A DNA stretch of 64,000 nt from a virus. The position numbers and the translations under genes were made by a program. This document shows, piece after piece, positions 531-36,853 of the stretch. The stretch is taken from UHGV virus genome UHGV-1488776, one strand, 5' to 3'. The notes under the pieces were generated by a model. It did not search any database. It saw only the letters and a program-made list of their open reading frames with translations, and was not told the origin of the DNA. Each line of letters starts with the position of its first letter. The first letter of the stretch is position 1.

Positions 531-2950
531 AAGAGCTGTGCTATGGATCTGTTTGCAGTGGAATTGAAGCCGCGAGTATTGCCTGGGAACCGTTGGGTAT
601 GCGTCCGGCGTGGTTTGCTGAAATCGAGCCTTTTCCATCTGCCGTTCTTGCGCACCGCTGGCCCCATGTCGCCAACCTTGGCGACATGACAAAACTTGCC
701 AAAAAAGTCCTGGCTGGGGAAATCGAATCCCCTGATGTGCTCGTCGGGGGTACGCCTTGTCAGGCATTCAGTATCGCGGGCTTACGTGGTGGGCTTGATG
801 ATGAACGCGGCGCGCTAACTTTGAAGTATGTGGAGCTTGCAAATGCAATTGACGACAAACGGTCTGAGTCCTTCCTCAAACCGACAGTTATCGTCTGGGA
901 AAATGTCCCAGGAGTCCTGTCATCGGCAGATAACGCCTTCGGATGTTTCCTTGCCGGATTGGCTGGAGAAGATGCGCCATTTGAACCAGGTGATCGACCT
1001 GAATCAGGAAAAAGTAACGCGTTCTGGCGGTGGGATGGCAAAACCGGTTGCCATGCTCCAAAGTGGCCGCAGTGTGGTTGTATTTATGGACCGCAGCGAA
1101 AGGTGGCCTGGAGAATCCTTGATGCCCAATACTTCGGAGTGGCACAACGACGCCGACGCGTGTTTGTTGTCGCAAGTGCTCGAACAGACCTCGATCCCGC
1201 AACGGTACTTTTTGAGTTCGAAGGCGTGCGCCGGGATATTGCGCCGAGCAGAGGCGAGGGGAAGGAAGTTGCCGGAAATGTTGGAAATGGCATTAAAAGC
1301 GGGAGCCATTGGGATAACCCTGTAAATCCTCACCCGACACTTAACCAGTCACACAATACTGGTGGGATTGGTGCAAGTAACCAAGAGATTTTTGCGCAGC
1401 GAGGCAGCGGACTTGTGTATTGCATGGCGCATGGGCAAGGGGGGGCAGAAATAAAAAATGATGGGACATCACCTACTCTTACTTGTAATCATGAAGCTCC
1501 AATTGTGTTTTCTTGCAAGAAAGCTATTGCGTTTACAAGCAAAAATTATGGGCAGGATGCGGGTGTTGAGATTTCCCCAACTTTACGAGCTGGTAACTCT
1601 GCTAATAGCAATCAAAACGCGGGATGCCCACCAGCTGTTGCGTATTCGCTACAACATGCACAAATTGGGCGAAAAGATGATGCTGGACCGCAGGGTAAAG
1701 GGTGGCAAAAAGAGATAAGTTTTACTCTTGATTCCCGCGCAACAGCTGACGCCGTTGCGTTATCTTTTTGGGGGCAGGAAAGTATTGAAAAAGGCGAATT
1801 AGGTGAGAATGGTTACTTACCTCATATGATGAGCGTTCGCCGTCTGACTCCTGTCGAATGTGAAAGGCTGCAAGGTTTTCCTGATGGACATACGTTGATT
1901 CCAACGGGAAAGCGTAAGAAAGTTACTTCAGATGAACTTATATACCTTCGCAATCACGATCCTGATTTAAGTGAAGAAGAGGCCGCCATGCTTGCAGCTG
2001 ACGGACCTCGTTACAAAGCGATCGGCAATAGTATGGCGATACCAGTAATGCGCTGGATTGGCGAGCGGATTACCAAGGCTGCATGTCGGCAGAAAGAAGG
2101 AAGTGAAACAAAAGAGCGAAAAGTTAAACCAGCGGCAGAATTCGAACGGTCCATATTCAAATGGGCTGGTGGAAAATTTGGTGTTCTGGAACAAATCTTT
2201 CGCTATTTGCCAGAAGGGAAGCGCCTGATTGAACCTTTCGTTGGTGGCGGAGCTGTCTTCATGAATGCCGGATACCAGGAAAATCTGCTAAATGATGTGA
2301 ATGCTGACCTGATTAACTTTTACAAGACTCTGCAACGCGAGGCGCATTCACTTATCACTCTGGCACATCGTTTCTTCCAGGACTACAACACGCAGGAAGG
2401 ATACCTGGCAGTACGGAATGCGTTTAACAAACAAGTCTATGATGATTTACATCGCGCAGCGGCGTTTTTGTTCCTGAACCGACATTGTTTTAACGGATTG
2501 ACGCGTTACAACCAAGCCGGTGAGTTCAATGTCGGTTATGGGAAGTATAAAACTCCGTATTTCCCATTGCAGGAGATGGAAGCCTTCCTTGGTGCGGAAG
2601 GGCGTTCTGAGTTTGTATGTGGTGATTTTGCTGCGGTGATTGAAGCTGCCGGAGAAGGAGATGTCATCTTTTGCGATCCGCCGTATGAACCGCTCCCAAA
2701 TACAGAGGGATTCACGAACTATTCCGGTCATGACTTTAAGTTTGAAGAGCAAAAACGCCTGGTGTCTCTGTTGACGGATGCTCATCGCCGAGGTGCAAAG
2801 GTTCTCATTACTAACAGTGGCGCGCCAAACATCAGAGAACTTTATCAGGACAGTGGCTTCAGAGTGGAACCTCTTTTTGCCAGACGTTCTGTGTCTTGTA
2901 AGGGGGGCTCTCGAGGTGTTGCTCATGACGTTATAGCAATATTGCTCTAA
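527..2950 (+). CDS. dmt: bifunctional DNA methyltransferase (N-terminal C5-cytosine MTase, C-terminal Dam-like N6-adenine MTase)
   Basis: 807 aa; N-terminal GTPCQAFS (PCQ motif) and WENVPG (ENV motif); C-terminal FKWAGGK and DPPYEP Dam motifs; position upstream of tRNAs and ban as in P1. Confidence 0.85.
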
Positions 2951-2957
2951 TAAATTT
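2941..2957. promoter_or_regulatory. C1 repressor operator, 17/17 match to ATTGCTCTAATAAATTT, with overlapping inverted partial site to 2968
   Basis: Exact consensus 17-mer overlapping the dmt stop codon; likely the operator of the tRNA-ban operon (Op72-like). Confidence 0.7.
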
Positions 2958-3134
2958 ATTAGTGTAATATCGCCTCAATGAATCGTGATTTATAGAGCGA
3001 TTTAGCTGTTAGCCGCGACAGGCGCGGCGGCAAGTATGGCGGGGTAGTGACTCCTTCCCCATCATGACGCCGAGTTGCCAGGTTGACCATACGCCTAAGT
3101 GGCAACACCGAAGTGCGTTACGAGCTTCCAGTTT

Positions 3135-3625: not shown

Positions 3626-3701
3626 GATGGTGTAGCTCAGCGGTTAGAGCGGTTGACTGTTAATCAACGGGTCGATGGTTCAAATCCATCCACCATCGCC
3701 A
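3626..3701 (+). tRNA. trnA: tRNA-Asn (anticodon GTT)
   Basis: Hand-folded cloverleaf: acceptor GATGGTG/CACCATC, D-arm GCTC/GAGC, anticodon loop CTGTTAA, T-loop TTCAAAT, 3' CCA encoded. Confidence 0.85.
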
Positions 3702-3703
3702 AT

Positions 3704-3779
3704 GCCGGTTTAGCTCAGTTGGTAGAGCGCCTGCCTTGTAAGCAGGATGTCAGCGGTTCGAGTCCGTTAATCGGCACCA
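3704..3779 (+). tRNA. trnT: tRNA-Thr (anticodon TGT)
   Basis: Hand-folded cloverleaf: acceptor GCCGGTT/AATCGGC, anticodon loop CTTGTAA, T-loop TTCGAGT, CCA encoded; 2 nt after tRNA-Asn. Confidence 0.85.
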
Positions 3780-4707: not shown

Positions 4708-5133
4708 ATGCTCGGTATTCTCAAAAAGAAATTCCGCAAAGCGGCTGGCGGAGTCAAGAAGATGGAAAACCGTGATGCGGTGGAAGCGACTGTCTGGGGC
4801 GCATATTCCATTGCATACTCTGACGGCACCTGCGATGCGAAAGAAATTGCAGTATTGGAAAAAACCATTGCAGCACTTCCTGCCTTTGCGCCGTTCTCCG
4901 GTGAAATTGCCCAGATGAGCGCCAATATTCGCGCTCAATATGAAGCCTCGCCGCGCCGAGCGAATGCCCAGGCTTTACGTGAACTGGCTGACGTGTCTGG
5001 AACTAATGATGCGGTAGATGTTCTGTGCCTATGCATTGATATTGCTGACCAGGATGGCATTGGGGCAGAAGAGCAGGAGCAATTGAAGAAAATTGCCCAG
5101 GCTCTTCAATTGCCACTGGAACAGTATATCTGA
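4708..5133 (+). CDS. tciA: TerB-like (tellurite-resistance family) protein
   Basis: 141 aa, acidic, TerB-like composition; position between tRNA genes upstream of ban matches P1 tciA; true start may be internal. Confidence 0.55.
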   Translation: MLGILKKKFRKAAGGVKKMENRDAVEATVWGAYSIAYSDGTCDAKEIAVLEKTIAALPAFAPFSGEIAQMSANIRAQYEASPRRANAQALRELADVSGTNDAVDVLCLCIDIADQDGIGAEEQEQLKKIAQALQLPLEQYI

Positions 5134-5297
5134 TGGTTATAAAAGCACGTCTAATTCTGGCTTTGGTTTTTCTCGTGCTATCTGTGCTGGTGGATTTCAC
5201 CAGCACAATCCTGTCGGTTTTATCCGACGGGGCGTTGGTAGCAGTAGCTGTAACATTGGTATGGCCGATATTTAAACCAGCCTCGAAGGATCAGTGA
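5133..5297 (+). CDS. small membrane protein (54 aa)
   Basis: ATG overlaps tciA stop (ATGA); hydrophobic MVIKARLILALVFLVLSVLV...; positionally P1 tciB-like. Confidence 0.4.
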   Translation: MVIKARLILALVFLVLSVLVDFTSTILSVLSDGALVAVAVTLVWPIFKPASKDQ

Positions 5298-5407: not shown

Positions 5408-5483
5408 GGCCCTTTAGCTCAGTGGTTAGAGCTGGCGACTCATAATCGCACGGTCACCGGTTCAAGTCCGGTAGGGGCCACCA
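5408..5483 (+). tRNA. trnI: tRNA-Ile (anticodon CAT, ileX/lysidine type)
   Basis: Hand-folded cloverleaf: acceptor GGCCCTT/AGGGGCC, anticodon loop CTCATAA, T-loop TTCAAGT, CCA encoded; body resembles E. coli ileX rather than Met tRNAs. Confidence 0.75.
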
Positions 5484-26132: not shown

Positions 26133-26507
26133 ATGATGACACTAAAACATTTTCTTGACCGCCCATTATGGGCGGCAGCCGCAGGCTATGACTTTAATTA
26201 TATGGATTGCATGTCTTATACTGCCAATGCATACGACCATTCGTTCAGCCTGCTGTTTAATTCTTTAAGAATATTGCCGGAAACAGAAGTTGGAGAGCTT
26301 CATTTATGGATATTGGGCTTTATCGCGGCTGGAGTTGGTATTGCCGTATGGCCTTTTATTTTCTGGCTGGTGGCTGTTGTAGTGTGGTTTAAGTGCAAGA
26401 CGTACCGGAAAAAGTATTTCTTAGGTGATGGAATGACTGATATTGCCAAAATGAACATTGAAAAATGGACTAAGGAATGTGAAAAGAAATGGCGCAAAAA
26501 GAAATGA
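26133..26507 (+). CDS. membrane protein
   Basis: TM segment WILGFIAAGVGIAVWPFIFWLVAVVVWF, basic C-terminus. Confidence 0.45.
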   Translation: MMTLKHFLDRPLWAAAAGYDFNYMDCMSYTANAYDHSFSLLFNSLRILPETEVGELHLWILGFIAAGVGIAVWPFIFWLVAVVVWFKCKTYRKKYFLGDGMTDIAKMNIEKWTKECEKKWRKKK

Positions 26508-27163
26508 CTACTCTAACGACAGCATACTTACAGCAATTGGTATTTTTTGCAGGCGAGGCTACTTGTCATCCTGACGCAAACTATTTATTGGAATTTGAGA
26601 GGTTAGCGTCACCCGGTATCGTTCTGGAACTGGCCCAACAGGTGCTGGCCTTGAGACAAAAAGAGCAACATAAAAGTAATACGTGTAGATTGAATTTTGA
26701 GCAGTGGCTGGAACAGCAACGCGGAAAAATCGATGTGGACTGTGGTTGTGTGTCCACTGAAACATTCATGCACTGGCTGCGGGTAGCTTACGAGGCTGGC
26801 AACTATCCGGATATTCCGGATAGTTCGGTGCCAGCGCCAGGAAAGGGCGTCACCGGTGAACGTATCCGCATTAAGCCGCATGTTTATCGCGAACTGGTTA
26901 ACCGTCTCCACGATACAGCGATCAAGTGTGCTGGCACCCAGCAATTACGAGAAAGAATTAGCCGTGTTTTGGGCGACGTTATTACGCCATATCATCATAA
27001 ACAAGCCGAGAAAAGCGGTCTGGAAAGGTGTCATCTTGAGGCAGCATTAAACATTAAGCCGGGGCATACGCTTGGCATTATTGATGCACTGTTGGTTCAT
27101 AAGATGGCCAGGGCTTTATTGTCGTTGGTGGACGCTGGTGATACAAGCGAGGGTGAAGTATGA
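26504..27163 (+). CDS. hypothetical protein
   Basis: 219 aa from ATG overlapping upstream stop (ATGA). Confidence 0.45.
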   Translation: MTTLTTAYLQQLVFFAGEATCHPDANYLLEFERLASPGIVLELAQQVLALRQKEQHKSNTCRLNFEQWLEQQRGKIDVDCGCVSTETFMHWLRVAYEAGNYPDIPDSSVPAPGKGVTGERIRIKPHVYRELVNRLHDTAIKCAGTQQLRERISRVLGDVITPYHHKQAEKSGLERCHLEAALNIKPGHTLGIIDALLVHKMARALLSLVDAGDTSEGEV

Positions 27164-27522
27164 GAGTTGCAGATCACATCAAACACCTTGAAAGAATTAT
27201 CGAAAACGGTGAACTCTTAAGAGATCAGATGAGACGCACGGCAGAAGCCAGGGAGGCGATAATCCACAGTCAGGCTGGTAAATTAAAGCAATTGTCAGAG
27301 ATTAACACGCTATACAAGAACAGACGTAACCGGGCGGTGATGCGGCTTCAGAAAGCACGTAATGAAATTAAATTGGTGGAGGCAAAACTGAAAAAACAGA
27401 TCCAGCGTTACGATCAGCAAGATGCTTTTTATGCCGCCATCAAGGCGGCTGCTAATGAAATAGGCATCTGGAAGTTGCTGGTGGAGAAAGCAAAGACGAA
27501 GTTAAATGCCAACGAAAGCTGA
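27160..27522 (+). CDS. coiled-coil protein
   Basis: 120 aa, heptad-rich; ATGA overlap. Confidence 0.45.
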   Translation: MRVADHIKHLERIIENGELLRDQMRRTAEAREAIIHSQAGKLKQLSEINTLYKNRRNRAVMRLQKARNEIKLVEAKLKKQIQRYDQQDAFYAAIKAAANEIGIWKLLVEKAKTKLNANES

Positions 27523-27597
27523 ACTACAGGTGCCCACCAGCACATACAGAAAATGATTGTTTCCACATCAAGGAGATTTTAATGTTTCACTGAAACA

Positions 27598-27735
27598 TTA
27601 AGTAAGCCAGTGCATAATTCCATTTTTTACTGACCTTAAAAGCAAAATCAAAACGATGATGAGGATAATAGCCAGAATCTGGCTAATAATAGGCGCATCT
27701 AAAAATGCACTCAGGAACTGAAAAAAAGCGTTCAT
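27598..27735 (-). CDS. 45-aa hydrophobic peptide (candidate small membrane toxin)
   Basis: MNAFFQFLSAFLDAPIISQILAIILIIVLILLLRSVKNGIMHWLT; AAGGAA SD about 10 nt upstream; in AT-rich low-coding island. Confidence 0.3.
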   Translation of the reverse strand: MNAFFQFLSAFLDAPIISQILAIILIIVLILLLRSVKNGIMHWLT

Positions 27736-28597
27736 TCAGGTGGTTCCTTGTCAAATGTAAAGGTGCACTTGCTCACGTTGACGTAGAAACCCAACCCCTA
27801 TATAGTTGGATTCGGTGAATGAAAGTCGTTAACGTGAGCTTACGGCACATGTTTTCGGAAAAACATCAGGGAACGGCTAATTCCTTGATGCGGGTGGGGT
27901 CTGTAATGCAGACCCTATCTATTAACGTCATGATTGCATCTCAAATTTTCTCCTTATCTTCAATTAATCTACATTCATTTCATCTGTTAGCCACCACAAT
28001 ATGTAGAAAATGGCCCTCTTGCAAGTGCATAACTTTGTGGATAACTCAGGAAGGAAAAAGTGGCTTTCGCGCACCTTCGGTCAGACAAGGTGTCCGGGAA
28101 AGTCAACGCAAAGAAAAAAATTGTTAAAAATAACGTTTGTTGGAATTGTATATTTTTATCCCCTTCAATGGTTAGCATTCTATTAACATCTTTTTTTAGA
28201 GACAGAAAAACATATCGTAACAACATATATACAGTATTAAGAGGCGAGTATTATCCTGCGGTGGGAATTCTGGGCGCTGTTAGATTCGACTTTCTCAGCA
28301 GGATTACATCGTCAACTTGCGACGTTGCCGTATGACTTTCGTGTAATAGGTGACAATGATGCGGCTAGTGAGTTACTTGTGAAGTTTTTCGGAAAAGGTT
28401 TTGTGGCCTCGGATCTTGATGAGCTACAGCAACATGAAGTGTCTAATTTGATTTTTAGCCATAGCCAATAAGCCTCCCTCCTCCATCAAGGCCACAATTT
28501 GTGACCTTAAACAATTTGTTTTCTGCTTTTTCTTATTTGAGAAAATAACGTTGTTGACAGCTAATAGGCTCGTTGTTGTTATACATGCCTGTATAGA

Positions 28598-28954
28598 TTA
28601 TGACCGTAAATTATTAGCGGATTTTAAGCCATATTCACCGTTGTAGAAATTACTCATGTTCCATTCATTGGGAAGCTCTTTTCTGTCCAATGTATAGTGG
28701 CGCACGATATAACGATCTTCATCTTCTTCGATGGACAGGCGGACATAGCCAATGTGAATCACCGATACGGGCGGTGTTCGTATTGCATAGATGTCGCGGA
28801 GATATACCGGTAGCTCGACAAATGCATCAGGTGCATCTGTGACGCTCGTTTTTTCACAGTATTCATATAACGCATCGTTGATATCGTTAAGAGATTCATG
28901 ATCGTATATTTCCAGGTAATTACCGCGATCGCGATGGTACTCGATTTTAGCCAT
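28598..28954 (-). CDS. hypothetical protein
   Basis: 118-aa ORF coupled to the upstream minus-strand gene. Confidence 0.45.
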   Translation of the reverse strand: MAKIEYHRDRGNYLEIYDHESLNDINDALYEYCEKTSVTDAPDAFVELPVYLRDIYAIRTPPVSVIHIGYVRLSIEEDEDRYIVRHYTLDRKELPNEWNMSNFYNGEYGLKSANNLRS

Positions 28955-29539
28955 TCAAAATCCCCTGTTATCGTTTTGCATTTTTCTAATCCGGTTCAGA
29001 ACTACTTCATGCTGGGCTTGGATAGCGGCTTTTTCGTTTTCAAGCCGGGCGATAGACATCTCCAATTCTTTGCTGTACCAGGCGAGCTGGGCCAGGTTCA
29101 TCCGGTTGTGGTCGAGAGTTGGAGACACTTCGACGCGATCCCTTTCTTCCTGCTTTAATGAGAAGAGATTCATCTCATCCCTTGAGGAAAATTCAGCAAC
29201 AATTTCTTGTTGATGATCCGGTCGCTGCGGCATCCTCGCCAGTATAAATGGCGGTTCTTTTGAAAACATGAATGTCGGTTCAGACCGTGTTTTTACCCAG
29301 CTTGCCTGCTGTCTTTCGGCAAGTTCACAGGCTTCATCATAGTTATCTGCCAAACAAAGCACGGATGGACGGTCCCACGCCCCACCATTCAGACAATAAA
29401 CTACAATTTTCCCGTCAGGTTGTGTAACCCCATATGGATGGTCCCACCAGGCGTCCAGCTGAGCTTTAGAGCGTTTCTCGTTAGGAGTGCAGTCAAAATT
29501 TTTGGGCAATACAGGATCGAGAGGAATGCGATTAGGCAT
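28955..29539 (-). CDS. hypothetical protein, divergent from humD
   Basis: 194-aa ORF; positionally in the P1 lxr/hot neighbourhood but not identifiable. Confidence 0.45.
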   Translation of the reverse strand: MPNRIPLDPVLPKNFDCTPNEKRSKAQLDAWWDHPYGVTQPDGKIVVYCLNGGAWDRPSVLCLADNYDEACELAERQQASWVKTRSEPTFMFSKEPPFILARMPQRPDHQQEIVAEFSSRDEMNLFSLKQEERDRVEVSPTLDHNRMNLAQLAWYSKELEMSIARLENEKAAIQAQHEVVLNRIRKMQNDNRGF

Positions 29540-29675
29540 AGCTAATTCCTTATTAACTGATTGGCAACGAGGTTACGCTGATCCCGCGGTGATGAATAGT
29601 AGCAAAGCGCACAAAAATCATCAGCGGTGGTTGATGTACATAACGCGTTTGCACCAAAGGTGCTTCTTTAATGTA

Positions 29676-29695
29676 TACTGTACAGATAAACAGTA
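29676..29695. promoter_or_regulatory. LexA box (SOS operator)
   Basis: TACTGTACAGATAAACAGTA matches CTGT-N8-ACAG, 19 nt upstream of humD, overlapping a TATACT -10-like hexamer. Confidence 0.65.
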
Positions 29696-29713
29696 TTTTT
29701 GAGGTAAAACGCT

Positions 29714-30103
29714 ATGGGTTTCCCTTCTCCTGCGGCGGATTATGTTGAAAGCCGAATTTCTCTTGATCAGCAGATAATTAGACATCCATCAGCAACCTAC
29801 TTCATGCGGGCAGCTGATAGCCATCACCGTGAGGGAATATTGCAGGGTGCTTTGCTGGTGGTTGATTCTTCGCTTACTCCAGTTGATGGTTCGCTGCTTG
29901 TGTGCGCTATGGAGGGTGAATATCGCATAAAGAGATACAGGAAGTATCCGCGCCAGCACCTGGAGGATTTAAGCACCGGGAAGAAAGAGGCGTTACCAGT
30001 AGATGACGATGGATGCACGGGCAGTAATGCTGTTTTTGGTGTGATCACTCATGTCATCAATGATGCCCGAAGTGGGGAGTTTGATGATTGTCCGGTTATT
30101 TAA
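29714..30103 (+). CDS. humD: UmuD'-like SOS mutagenesis protein
   Basis: 129 aa, S24 peptidase-like core; LexA box upstream; position before phd/doc as in P1. Confidence 0.7.
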   Translation: MGFPSPAADYVESRISLDQQIIRHPSATYFMRAADSHHREGILQGALLVVDSSLTPVDGSLLVCAMEGEYRIKRYRKYPRQHLEDLSTGKKEALPVDDDGCTGSNAVFGVITHVINDARSGEFDDCPVI

Positions 30104-36532: not shown

Positions 36533-36769
36533 AATTATGCCTCACTGTATTGACAACACAGAGCCTGAAGCTCTGACCTACTGTTTCACCCATGATCCAT
36601 GCTGGGGTAATCTAACAACATTGCGCTGTGTGTAAGATGAGCAATGCATAGCTGTAATGCCGTTGTATAAGGTTTCCCTGTTTGCTCATTTCCTTCTGAG
36701 CCGCTCTACAACGCTGAAGACACATTAAATAGTGAATCCAAAGTCGTATTACGAAACGGCGGCAAAACT

Positions 36770-36786
36770 ATAATTTATTAGAGCAA
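36770..36786. promoter_or_regulatory. C1 operator, inverted (16/17)
   Basis: TAATTTATTAGAGCAAT upstream of coi-c1. Confidence 0.6.
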
Positions 36787-36853
36787 TTGTCAAACAACTA
36801 TGAAAAACAATCCAGTTTTTGGCTGGTGGAGTGGGATTTTTCTCTCAAAATTT

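Follow-up and report, generated by a model that had tools for sequence, protein, structure and literature searches.

What is encoded by an AT-rich interval of about 1.1 kb in which no protein gene stands out? The interval in question, a gap between two blocks of genes, spans positions 27523-28597 of a 64,000-nucleotide (nt) stretch of the virus genome UHGV-1488776 (hereafter the window, to which coordinates refer unless another sequence is named). An earlier inspection of the letters alone (the sequence-only reading) had seen no convincing protein gene there and had proposed a type I toxin locus, built around a minus-strand open reading frame (ORF) for a hydrophobic peptide of 45 amino acids (aa). 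As judged by alignment, the left half of the interval (about 27560-28134) is a conserved two-strand unit; it may be an undescribed type I toxin-antitoxin module with the layout of hok/sok or ldr/rdl, a reading to which we give a probability of roughly 0.36. The right half (28226-28552) is, by homology, non-functional recombination debris. The two most informative features of the locus, a conserved core and a promoter captured from nrdA, were both absent from the sequence-only reading.

Distribution and conservation of the locus

By nucleotide identity, the window is a P1/P7-type phage-plasmid. Positions 27400-28700 were 99.8% identical to phage P7, leaving aside the IS903 element of P7 (inserted at 28343/28344 in window coordinates), and 96% identical to P1 over the first 675 bases. 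The hot gene is missing from both the window and P7, and the ORFs annotated in the two are upf91.3, upf91.4, upf91.6 and upf91.7, after which upf93.6 and upf94.2 (lxr) lie on the minus strand. P1-like phage-plasmids have eight hypervariable regions, and the interval belongs to one of them (PMC9603915). It is AT-rich, as previously noted, but modestly so, with 36-43% GC versus 45-52% in the flanks.

The stretch 27532-28100 was searched for in phages, plasmids, all complete Escherichia coli genomes, IMG/VR and metagenomes. It was present in several hundred elements, all of them P1-like or SSU5-like phage-plasmids, and in nothing else that was searched. Only three sequence types were observed: type A (the window and P7); type B (92-96% identical to A), which occupies the equivalent interval of P1, the comparison that the sequence-only reading had proposed; and type C (77% identical to A). 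More divergent copies, sought in the same collections for covariation, again fell into these three types only. The upstream regions of 80 hot homologues yielded no further type, and a 15-mer scan of genome contigs gave chance matches only. Type C was carried both by P1-like plasmids (locus L008) and by an SSU5-like plasmid (locus L006), in which its neighbours are a type I restriction-modification system on one side, and hot and an umuD-like gene on the other; it follows that the unit moves from one phage-plasmid family to another. Across families, homology starts about 60 bp past the stop codon of the peptide ORF, hereafter ORF45.

Identity between types A and C was uneven along the unit. From left to right, it was 73% in the 3' flank of ORF45 (27532-27597), 76% in ORF45 itself (27598-27735), and 65% in its Shine-Dalgarno (SD) sequence and spacer (27736-27770). 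It then rose to 95% in a 42-bp block with a plus-strand promoter (27771-27812), 89% in a predicted plus-strand RNA with three hairpins (27813-27925), and 91% in a 35-bp SD-like block (27926-27960). Further on, it was 66% in a variable stretch with a 19-bp insertion in type C (27961-28005), 95% in the -35 hexamer and DnaA boxes of a minus-strand promoter (28006-28045), and 54% further upstream (28046-28134). A core of about 190 bp upstream of ORF45 was thus 89-95% identical between types, whereas the flanks were 54-76% identical. Since the proportion of synonymous differences (pS) in ORF45 was 0.40, the non-coding core is more constrained than the synonymous sites of the ORF.

One explanation, which we regard as quite improbable, is that the whole island is a non-functional recombination scar, with the nrdA piece as captured host DNA and the conservation due to recent exchange rather than selection. 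The interval is indeed hypervariable in P1-like elements (PMC9603915), its right half can be shown to consist of debris, it has clearly received a copy of host DNA, and P7 tolerates IS903 in this non-essential region. However, identity alternates sharply over short distances (65, 95, 89, 91, 66, 95 and 54%), and the peaks of identity match the promoter hexamers, the stems and the SD-like block, with the changes located in loops or compensatory. In addition, the plus-strand RNA folds far more stably than shuffled sequence, and ORF45 was unbroken in the 77 loci fetched, even though four frameshifted or truncated copies occur in protein databases.

ORF45 and its product

The peptide ORF was present where it had been reported: positions 27598-27735 on the minus strand hold an ATG-initiated ORF, whose 45-aa product, MNAFFQFLSAFLDAPIISQILAIILIIVLILLLRSVKNGIMHWLT, combines a predicted single transmembrane helix with a basic C-terminal tail and is a candidate toxin or small membrane protein. 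Its grand average of hydropathicity (GRAVY) is 1.56, with a score of 3.0 for residues 14-33, and that of the type C product is 1.72. The AAGGAA ribosome-binding site attributed to it was also found (27749-27744, minus strand), 8 nt ahead of the ATG. In type C, this SD reads GAGGA; the purine-rich core and a spacing of 8-9 nt are kept within a surrounding 35 nt that are 65% identical.

In the six frames of the window, six ORFs of 25-60 aa have a GRAVY above 1.3, and one such hydrophobic ORF in the 1.1-kb island has a probability of roughly 10% from composition alone. The case for ORF45 therefore rests on its conservation and not on its presence. Among the 77 loci that were fetched (58 viral and 19 metagenomic), ORF45 was open and exactly 45 aa long in every one, with six protein variants. 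Types A and C differed by 33 substitutions and no indels within the ORF, and five indels were found in its flanks. Between these 77%-identical types, the ratio of non-synonymous to synonymous change (dN/dS) was 0.40, and the replacements were mainly I/V/L/F exchanges, with hydrophobicity kept. PGAP annotates ORF45 as the hypothetical protein WP_000123562.1 in type B (P1-type) plasmids; it is unannotated in the P1 and P7 GenBank records.

No homologue outside the element was found among 5.8 and 1.8 billion proteins, only copies of ORF45 itself, and no paralogue was found within the window. The database copies were four in number: three C-terminal frameshift variants (P0001, P0003 and P0004) and a truncated fusion (P0002). 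Comparison of the peptide with Pfam, PHROGs, NCBIfam, PADLOC and PDB, with permissive thresholds for Pfam and NCBIfam, gave nothing meaningful; the best weak profile scores were those of phrog_1184 (E = 0.058) and ASFV_J13L (E = 0.25). In one metagenome contig (OGIW01000442.1, locus L299), homology to the element starts inside the 3' end of ORF45, and the copy carries a replaced tail (..SVKNGVMTPTY) and is still 45 aa long. Because of this replacement, the frameshift variants and the truncated fusion, the tail is the least constrained part of the peptide.

A hairpin with 11-bp perfect arms covers the ORF45 stop codon (27579-27601, minus strand) and may form a 3' structure in the mRNA; this AU-rich hairpin is weak and lacks a U-tail. 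In type C, an 8-bp stem is kept on the minus strand only, through changes from U-A to C-G and from G-C to G-U, and is lost on the plus strand, which lends weak support to the minus strand as the RNA that matters there. A local hairpin over the ORF45 SD, which forms in type A, was rejected as unsupported across types.

A plus-strand promoter and a candidate antisense RNA

Within the core, a sigma-70-type promoter (TTGACG-17 nt-TATAGT) lies on the plus strand at 27778-27806. It had 10 of 12 consensus matches in the promoter scan, both of its hexamers are invariant in every copy, and it corresponds to the same site as the PupfN promoter predicted in the P1 record. From this promoter, a candidate antisense RNA of about 110 nt would be transcribed (27813-27928, both ends being putative), with hairpins at 27826-27858, 27864-27890 and 27892-27920, the third of which is GC-rich and followed by UAUCUAUU.

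The predicted fold of this RNA has a minimum free energy of -43.2 kcal/mol (z = -4.85), and type C gave the same fold (z = -4.07). The complementary strand was 14 kcal/mol less stable (-29.1 kcal/mol, z = -2.99), because about eight G-U pairs become A-C mismatches. When seven distinct sequences were compared over 35 pairs, 97.6% of the cells were paired; one pair change was compensatory (U-A to C-G, in hairpin 3) and two were one-sided. In hairpin 2, the loop varies at three positions and nine of the ten stem pairs are invariant, the basal pair being broken in type C. Variable columns made up 6 out of the 70 paired and 11 out of the 49 unpaired columns (p = 0.06).

The same core could be seen as a sigma-70 promoter with the structured 5' leader of a plus-strand transcript that feeds hot, which encodes a homologue of DNA polymerase III theta. 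ORF45 would then be accidental, and the window would hold a recent orphan in which hot was replaced by debris. We consider this explanation unlikely, even though in P1 and type C the element always stands directly upstream of hot and the plus-strand promoter points there. The window type and P1 differ by only 2-4% in their shared part, so that hot may have been lost too recently for decay to show; the coding evidence for ORF45 is also not decisive. However, hot has its own late promoter immediately upstream (P1 record), 55 of the 80 other hot loci lack the element, and the type without hot is common, with 93 plasmids at at least 99% identity. Moreover, hairpin 3 resembles a stop rather than a leader element. 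A leader for hot would leave unexplained the SD, start, length and hydrophobicity of ORF45, the opposing nrdA-type promoter, and the UAAGGAG-AUG of the minus strand.

The plus-strand ORFs at 27819-28127 and 28060-28335, which the sequence-only reading had dismissed as noise, matched no family, and a 1-nt indel and a 19-nt insertion break their frames in the 77%-identical type. The plus-strand genes annotated in P1 and P7 were rejected in the same way: upfM/upf91.3 acquires a stop in type C, a 1-nt indel puts upfN out of frame there, and only type A has the upf91.4 ATG at 27819. Overall, upfM, upfN, upf91.4 and upf91.7 were all broken in type C. As for upfO and upf91.6, they would correspond to a ypaB-like reading frame across the copy of the nrdA promoter. 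A plus-strand promoter-like site, CTGAAA-17-CATAAT (27590-27618; P1upfM of the P1 record), was discarded because it is destroyed in type C. On the minus strand of the core, a 25-codon ORF was discarded as a protein, as it has no SD, and a C1 operator or an NrdR box in the core did not fit in spacing (comparison by eye only).

A promoter copied from nrdA and the predicted leader

On the minus strand, positions 28006-28134 are a copy of the region upstream of nrdA. Among the matches listed, these 129 bp were 93-95% identical to the chromosomal site at ypaB beside nrdA, which every one of the 5,426 complete E. coli genomes has; in E. coli, the annotated ypaB ORF also lies in this region, on the other strand. 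The core promoter (27996-28024) consists of a -35 hexamer TTGCAA (28024-28019), a 17-nt spacer and a -10 hexamer TATTGT (28001-27996); it matches the consensus at 8 of 12 positions and points at ORF45. When aligned in the nrdA sense, the -35 hexamer, the spacer and the DnaA boxes are identical to those of the K-12 nrdA promoter, and at the position of the K-12 -10 hexamer, TATCTT, types A and B have TATTGT and type C has TACTGT. The -35 hexamer and the spacing are kept in all three types, and homology to nrdA ends at the -10, beyond which the leader is phage-specific. In K-12, the -10 stands 113 nt ahead of the nrdA ATG (counted by hand on the alignment), in agreement with an nrdA leader of about 110 nt, and two NrdR boxes occupy the -10 and the sequence beyond it.

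Directly upstream of the -35 are two DnaA boxes, TTATCCACA aag TTATGCACT (28024-28044, minus strand). The box at 28036-28044 is the only perfect DnaA box in the 64-kb window, and the P1 record shows two predicted DnaA boxes at the same place. DnaA has been reported to repress nrdAB via such 9-mers, with DnaA-ATP as the repressor (PMC2500167). Types B and C hold the whole 130-bp upstream stretch at lower identity, so that capture of the nrdA region predates the split between the types. Type A is 95% identical to K-12 over the 129-bp stretch, and types B and C (loci L002 and L006) are about 55-75% identical to it outside the block of DnaA boxes and -35; this suggests that type A was later gene-converted against the E. 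coli chromosome.

The ORF45 transcript plausibly starts at the nrdA-type promoter, near 27989. Its predicted leader of about 250 nt would run from there through the core to ORF45; no other conserved ORF precedes the converging pmgV operon. About 35 nt past the presumed start, an invariant UAAGGAG, 10 nt and AUG (27937-27955, minus strand) may form a ribosome loading site. In types A and B, translation from this AUG would cover three codons, and in type C a stop follows it at once (AUG UAA). Overlapping or adjoining it is the AUG of a 21-codon ORF (27931-27866), which lies in the leader, overlaps the candidate antisense RNA and is present in all three types. The 21-codon ORF was rejected as a protein; because it shows six amino-acid replacements in 21 codons, its conservation is better explained by RNA structure, and it is probably a ribosome path rather than the source of a functional product. 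If the plus-strand RNA ends at about 27921-27928, it would be complementary to the leader from a few bases past these starts, inside the ribosome footprint.

A related arrangement was observed in phage Cyrano, of SSU5 type (locus L005). There, an nrdA-like promoter with DnaA boxes and a TATCTT -10 hexamer lies at about 2890-3045 on the minus strand, and a strong terminator, AAAAAGCCCAG-ttgacta-GGCTGGGCTTTTT, follows some 70 nt further on, an arrangement that hints at another short RNA served by this captured promoter.

With its candidate three-hairpin antisense RNA of about 110 nt opposite the 5' part of a longer transcript, and with DnaA boxes next to it, the element also recalls a replication or incompatibility determinant of the ColE1 kind, in which a primer-like transcript from the DnaA-box promoter would be under antisense control. 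This is by far the least probable of the explanations considered. The RNA had no Rfam match to RNAI or to any plasmid antisense family, and the same element is found in plasmids with unrelated replicons (IncY, IncHI1B-typed and rep_cluster_488). Such a determinant would also leave the conserved ORF45 and its SD unexplained, and oriR/repA and oriL/repL suffice to explain P1 replication in full.

A possible type I toxin-antitoxin module

Taken together, the features found in the sequence, the degree to which they are conserved and the promoter homology suggest the following course of transcription, pairing and toxicity. On the minus strand, the nrdA-type promoter would start a transcript near 27989, in which the leader of some 250 nt precedes the 45-aa membrane peptide. 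On the plus strand, the in-leader promoter would yield the three-hairpin RNA, fully complementary to the first half of the leader and ending a few bases from the UAAGGAG/AUG loading site. Pairing of this RNA with the leader would block ribosome entry and expose the duplex to RNase III. The peptide, presumably toxic, would then be made only when the antisense RNA falls or when the nrdA-type promoter is de-repressed.

We tentatively favor a type I toxin-antitoxin module because the locus encodes a short hydrophobic peptide behind a long conserved leader, with a sense promoter of weak consensus and a strong antisense promoter within the leader. The type I toxin locus proposed by the sequence-only reading thus gained a conserved ORF45 with its SD, and a facing promoter with a structured RNA; its likeness to named families did not hold, as no Hok, Ldr, TisB or Rfam antitoxin match was obtained. 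A more specific version, which we find doubtful, is that this is a second, RNA-controlled addiction or stress module of P1-type and some SSU5-type phage-plasmids, with a toxin unrelated to known families and an nrdA-derived promoter that would track DnaA and replication status instead of the SOS response.

The conservation evidence would serve equally well if ORF45 encoded a real but non-toxic small membrane protein, for example one involved in lysogenic conversion, exclusion or regulation, which the nrdA-type promoter would drive and the antisense RNA would tune. Many small hydrophobic proteins of bacteria and phages are non-toxic, and the peptide has no similarity to any toxin family. We nevertheless hold this to be rather unlikely, since type I loci characteristically combine a short hydrophobic peptide and a long conserved leader with a strong promoter for a cis-antisense RNA and a weaker one for the sense transcript, as the element does, and no partner gene or operon context hints at another role.

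Several observations weigh against a toxin-antitoxin module. Concerning the peptide, a simulated ORF that received the same number of substitutions stayed open in 41% of trials, 11% of those that stayed open keeping the hydrophobic core as well, and the number of non-synonymous changes in ORF45 was not unusual in these simulations; the coding evidence is only moderate. The peptide matched neither Hok/Gef, Ldr, TisB, Fst or Ibs nor any other named toxin family. Concerning the RNA, the U-tail of hairpin 3 is mediocre at best and this hairpin was not flagged by the terminator scan. Covariation is thin, with three sequence types only, and an Rfam cmscan of 26500-30000 with E values up to 1 returned nothing, including for Sok, Rdl, IstR, Sib, OhsC, OrzO, RNAI, CopA and C4. 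At 78-190 nt upstream of the ORF45 start, the candidate antisense RNA is not obviously placed for direct control of that start, and no conserved structure sequesters the ORF45 SD. Uneven identity in a mosaic element can also reflect recombination of different ages. The locus was not mentioned in the P1 RNA-seq literature that we found, and no paper in the literature searched, which did not include the P1 genome paper, ties the interval to a toxin-antitoxin system or a small RNA. Finally, upfN, upfO and hot were non-essential for P1 lytic growth in a CRISPR interference screen (PMC10695390); that the locus is dispensable for such growth is neutral with respect to a toxin-antitoxin module, but gives it no essential role.

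If the module is real and tracks DnaA as proposed, one of the best-studied phages would carry a replication-sensing type I system. What would be new is a peptide and an RNA without relatives, together with a sense promoter taken, DnaA boxes included, from nrdA of the host. P1 has long served as a model and tool phage, and P1-like phage-plasmids are widespread and carry resistance genes in Escherichia, Salmonella and Shigella. An unrecognized module at 2.5 kb from phd-doc would matter for plasmid maintenance, for the behavior of cured cells and for annotation, the P1 and P7 GenBank records having annotated non-conserved ORFs in the interval and missed the conserved ORF45. A host nrdA promoter with DnaA boxes on a predicted phage transcript would also offer a testable case of a mobile element tied to the replication cycle of its host. 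Even if ORF45 is not a toxin, the core of about 190 bp is still a strongly constrained non-coding element in a well-studied genome.

Gene remnants in the right half and other features of the window

As its alignments indicate, the right half (28226-28552) joins the vestige of a humD start to a truncated gene and the spacer downstream of that gene. The statement that the island holds no convincing protein gene was correct for the two plus-strand ORFs dismissed as noise, but it missed these remnants and the nrdA promoter copy. The vestigial humD/umuD start (28226-28262, plus strand) retains half a LexA box, TATACAGTA, an SD (AAGAGG) and interrupted first codons. Alignment with phage Cyrano revealed deletions of 11 bp and 13 bp relative to the start of a umuD-like gene; in Cyrano, an intact LexA box, the SD and ATGGGCTTCCC begin a gene for an S24 peptidase.

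The truncated gene (28271-28471, plus strand) is a 3' remnant that comprises the last 66 codons of a 174-aa SSU5-type gene, the first 108 codons being missing. It was 88% identical to residues 109-174 of the PhiR41_1 protein. A 48-aa plus-strand ORF within it (28325-28471) matched phrog_17952 ('DNA primase') with an E value of 2.4e-26, and the parent 174-aa gene is labelled as a primase or as toprim-like in some annotations. Decay of a known gene, which had been foreseen as another explanation of the island, therefore applies to the right half only and not to the left.

A consensus TTGACA hexamer had also been pointed out at 28553-28558. It is located one base further on, at 28554-28559 (plus strand), outside the module, and it does not look like a promoter: no TAnnnT stands 17 nt away, leaving it without a usable -10, the promoter scan did not flag it, and it is absent from the related SSU5-type PhiR41_1.

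In Cyrano, the equivalent SSU5-type interval contains an amphipathic minus-strand ORF of 27-31 aa (MVNLLFKIVPPMFAIIKAIIEYVNQRP; 2504-2599), which ends at its own GC-rich terminator before the umuD-like gene and is a further small-peptide candidate. Elsewhere in the window, the only perfect TTGACA-17-TAnnnT is found at 36765-36793 on the minus strand (TTGACAATTGCTCTAATAAATTATAGTTT). It overlaps a sequence that we take to be the P1 C1 operator consensus (ATTGCTCTAATAAATT), and is probably a C1-controlled promoter. A very hydrophobic 54-aa ORF (GRAVY 1.45) lies at 5133-5297 on the plus strand, just upstream of a tRNA-Met (5408-5483), and tRNA-Asn and tRNA-Thr are located at 3626-3779.

Comparison with known systems

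The genes upfM, upfN and upfO of P1 and upf91.3-91.7 of P7 are annotated on the same DNA as the module, but their plus-strand ORFs are not conserved. Compared with the E. coli nrdAB region, the module lacks the NrdR boxes, the nrdA 5' untranslated region and nrdA itself. RNA I/RNA II of ColE1 offers a similar antisense RNA of about 110 nt with three stem-loops; unlike it, the module is not linked to a replicon type and has a conserved peptide ORF downstream.

In tisB/istR-1, dinQ/agrB and zorO/orzO, the antisense RNA likewise acts on a ribosome entry site that belongs to a long leader and lies well ahead of the toxin start, as is proposed here, and expression is tied to a DNA-replication or damage signal, as would also be the case here. 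However, the RNA of these systems is divergently encoded and pairs over about 20 nt, whereas that of the module is fully cis-antisense over about 110 nt, and the ORF45 peptide is longer than their toxins. Whereas tisB and dinQ have LexA boxes, the module has DnaA boxes and no LexA box at its promoter; a single LexA-box remnant was seen (28226-28237), as part of the vestigial humD start on the opposite strand.

The closest layout is that of hok/sok and ldr/rdl. At the sequence level, no match to the Hok/Gef or Ldr peptides or to the Sok or Rdl RNAs was found here. Unlike in hok/sok, no mok-like ORF overlaps ORF45, the leader ORFs ending 130 nt and 37 nt upstream of its start, and no tac/fbi long-range pairing was identified at the locus. 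The peptides are of similar kind (about 50 aa for Hok and 35 aa for Ldr, versus 45 aa for ORF45). Like hok/sok and ldr/rdl, the module is sited on a plasmid-like element, and it shares with them a small hydrophobic peptide with one helix, encoded behind a long leader, inside which a strong promoter serves a short, structured cis-antisense RNA, predicted in the present case. In both known systems, the antisense RNA covers an upstream translation start and not the toxin start, and the same is proposed for ORF45.

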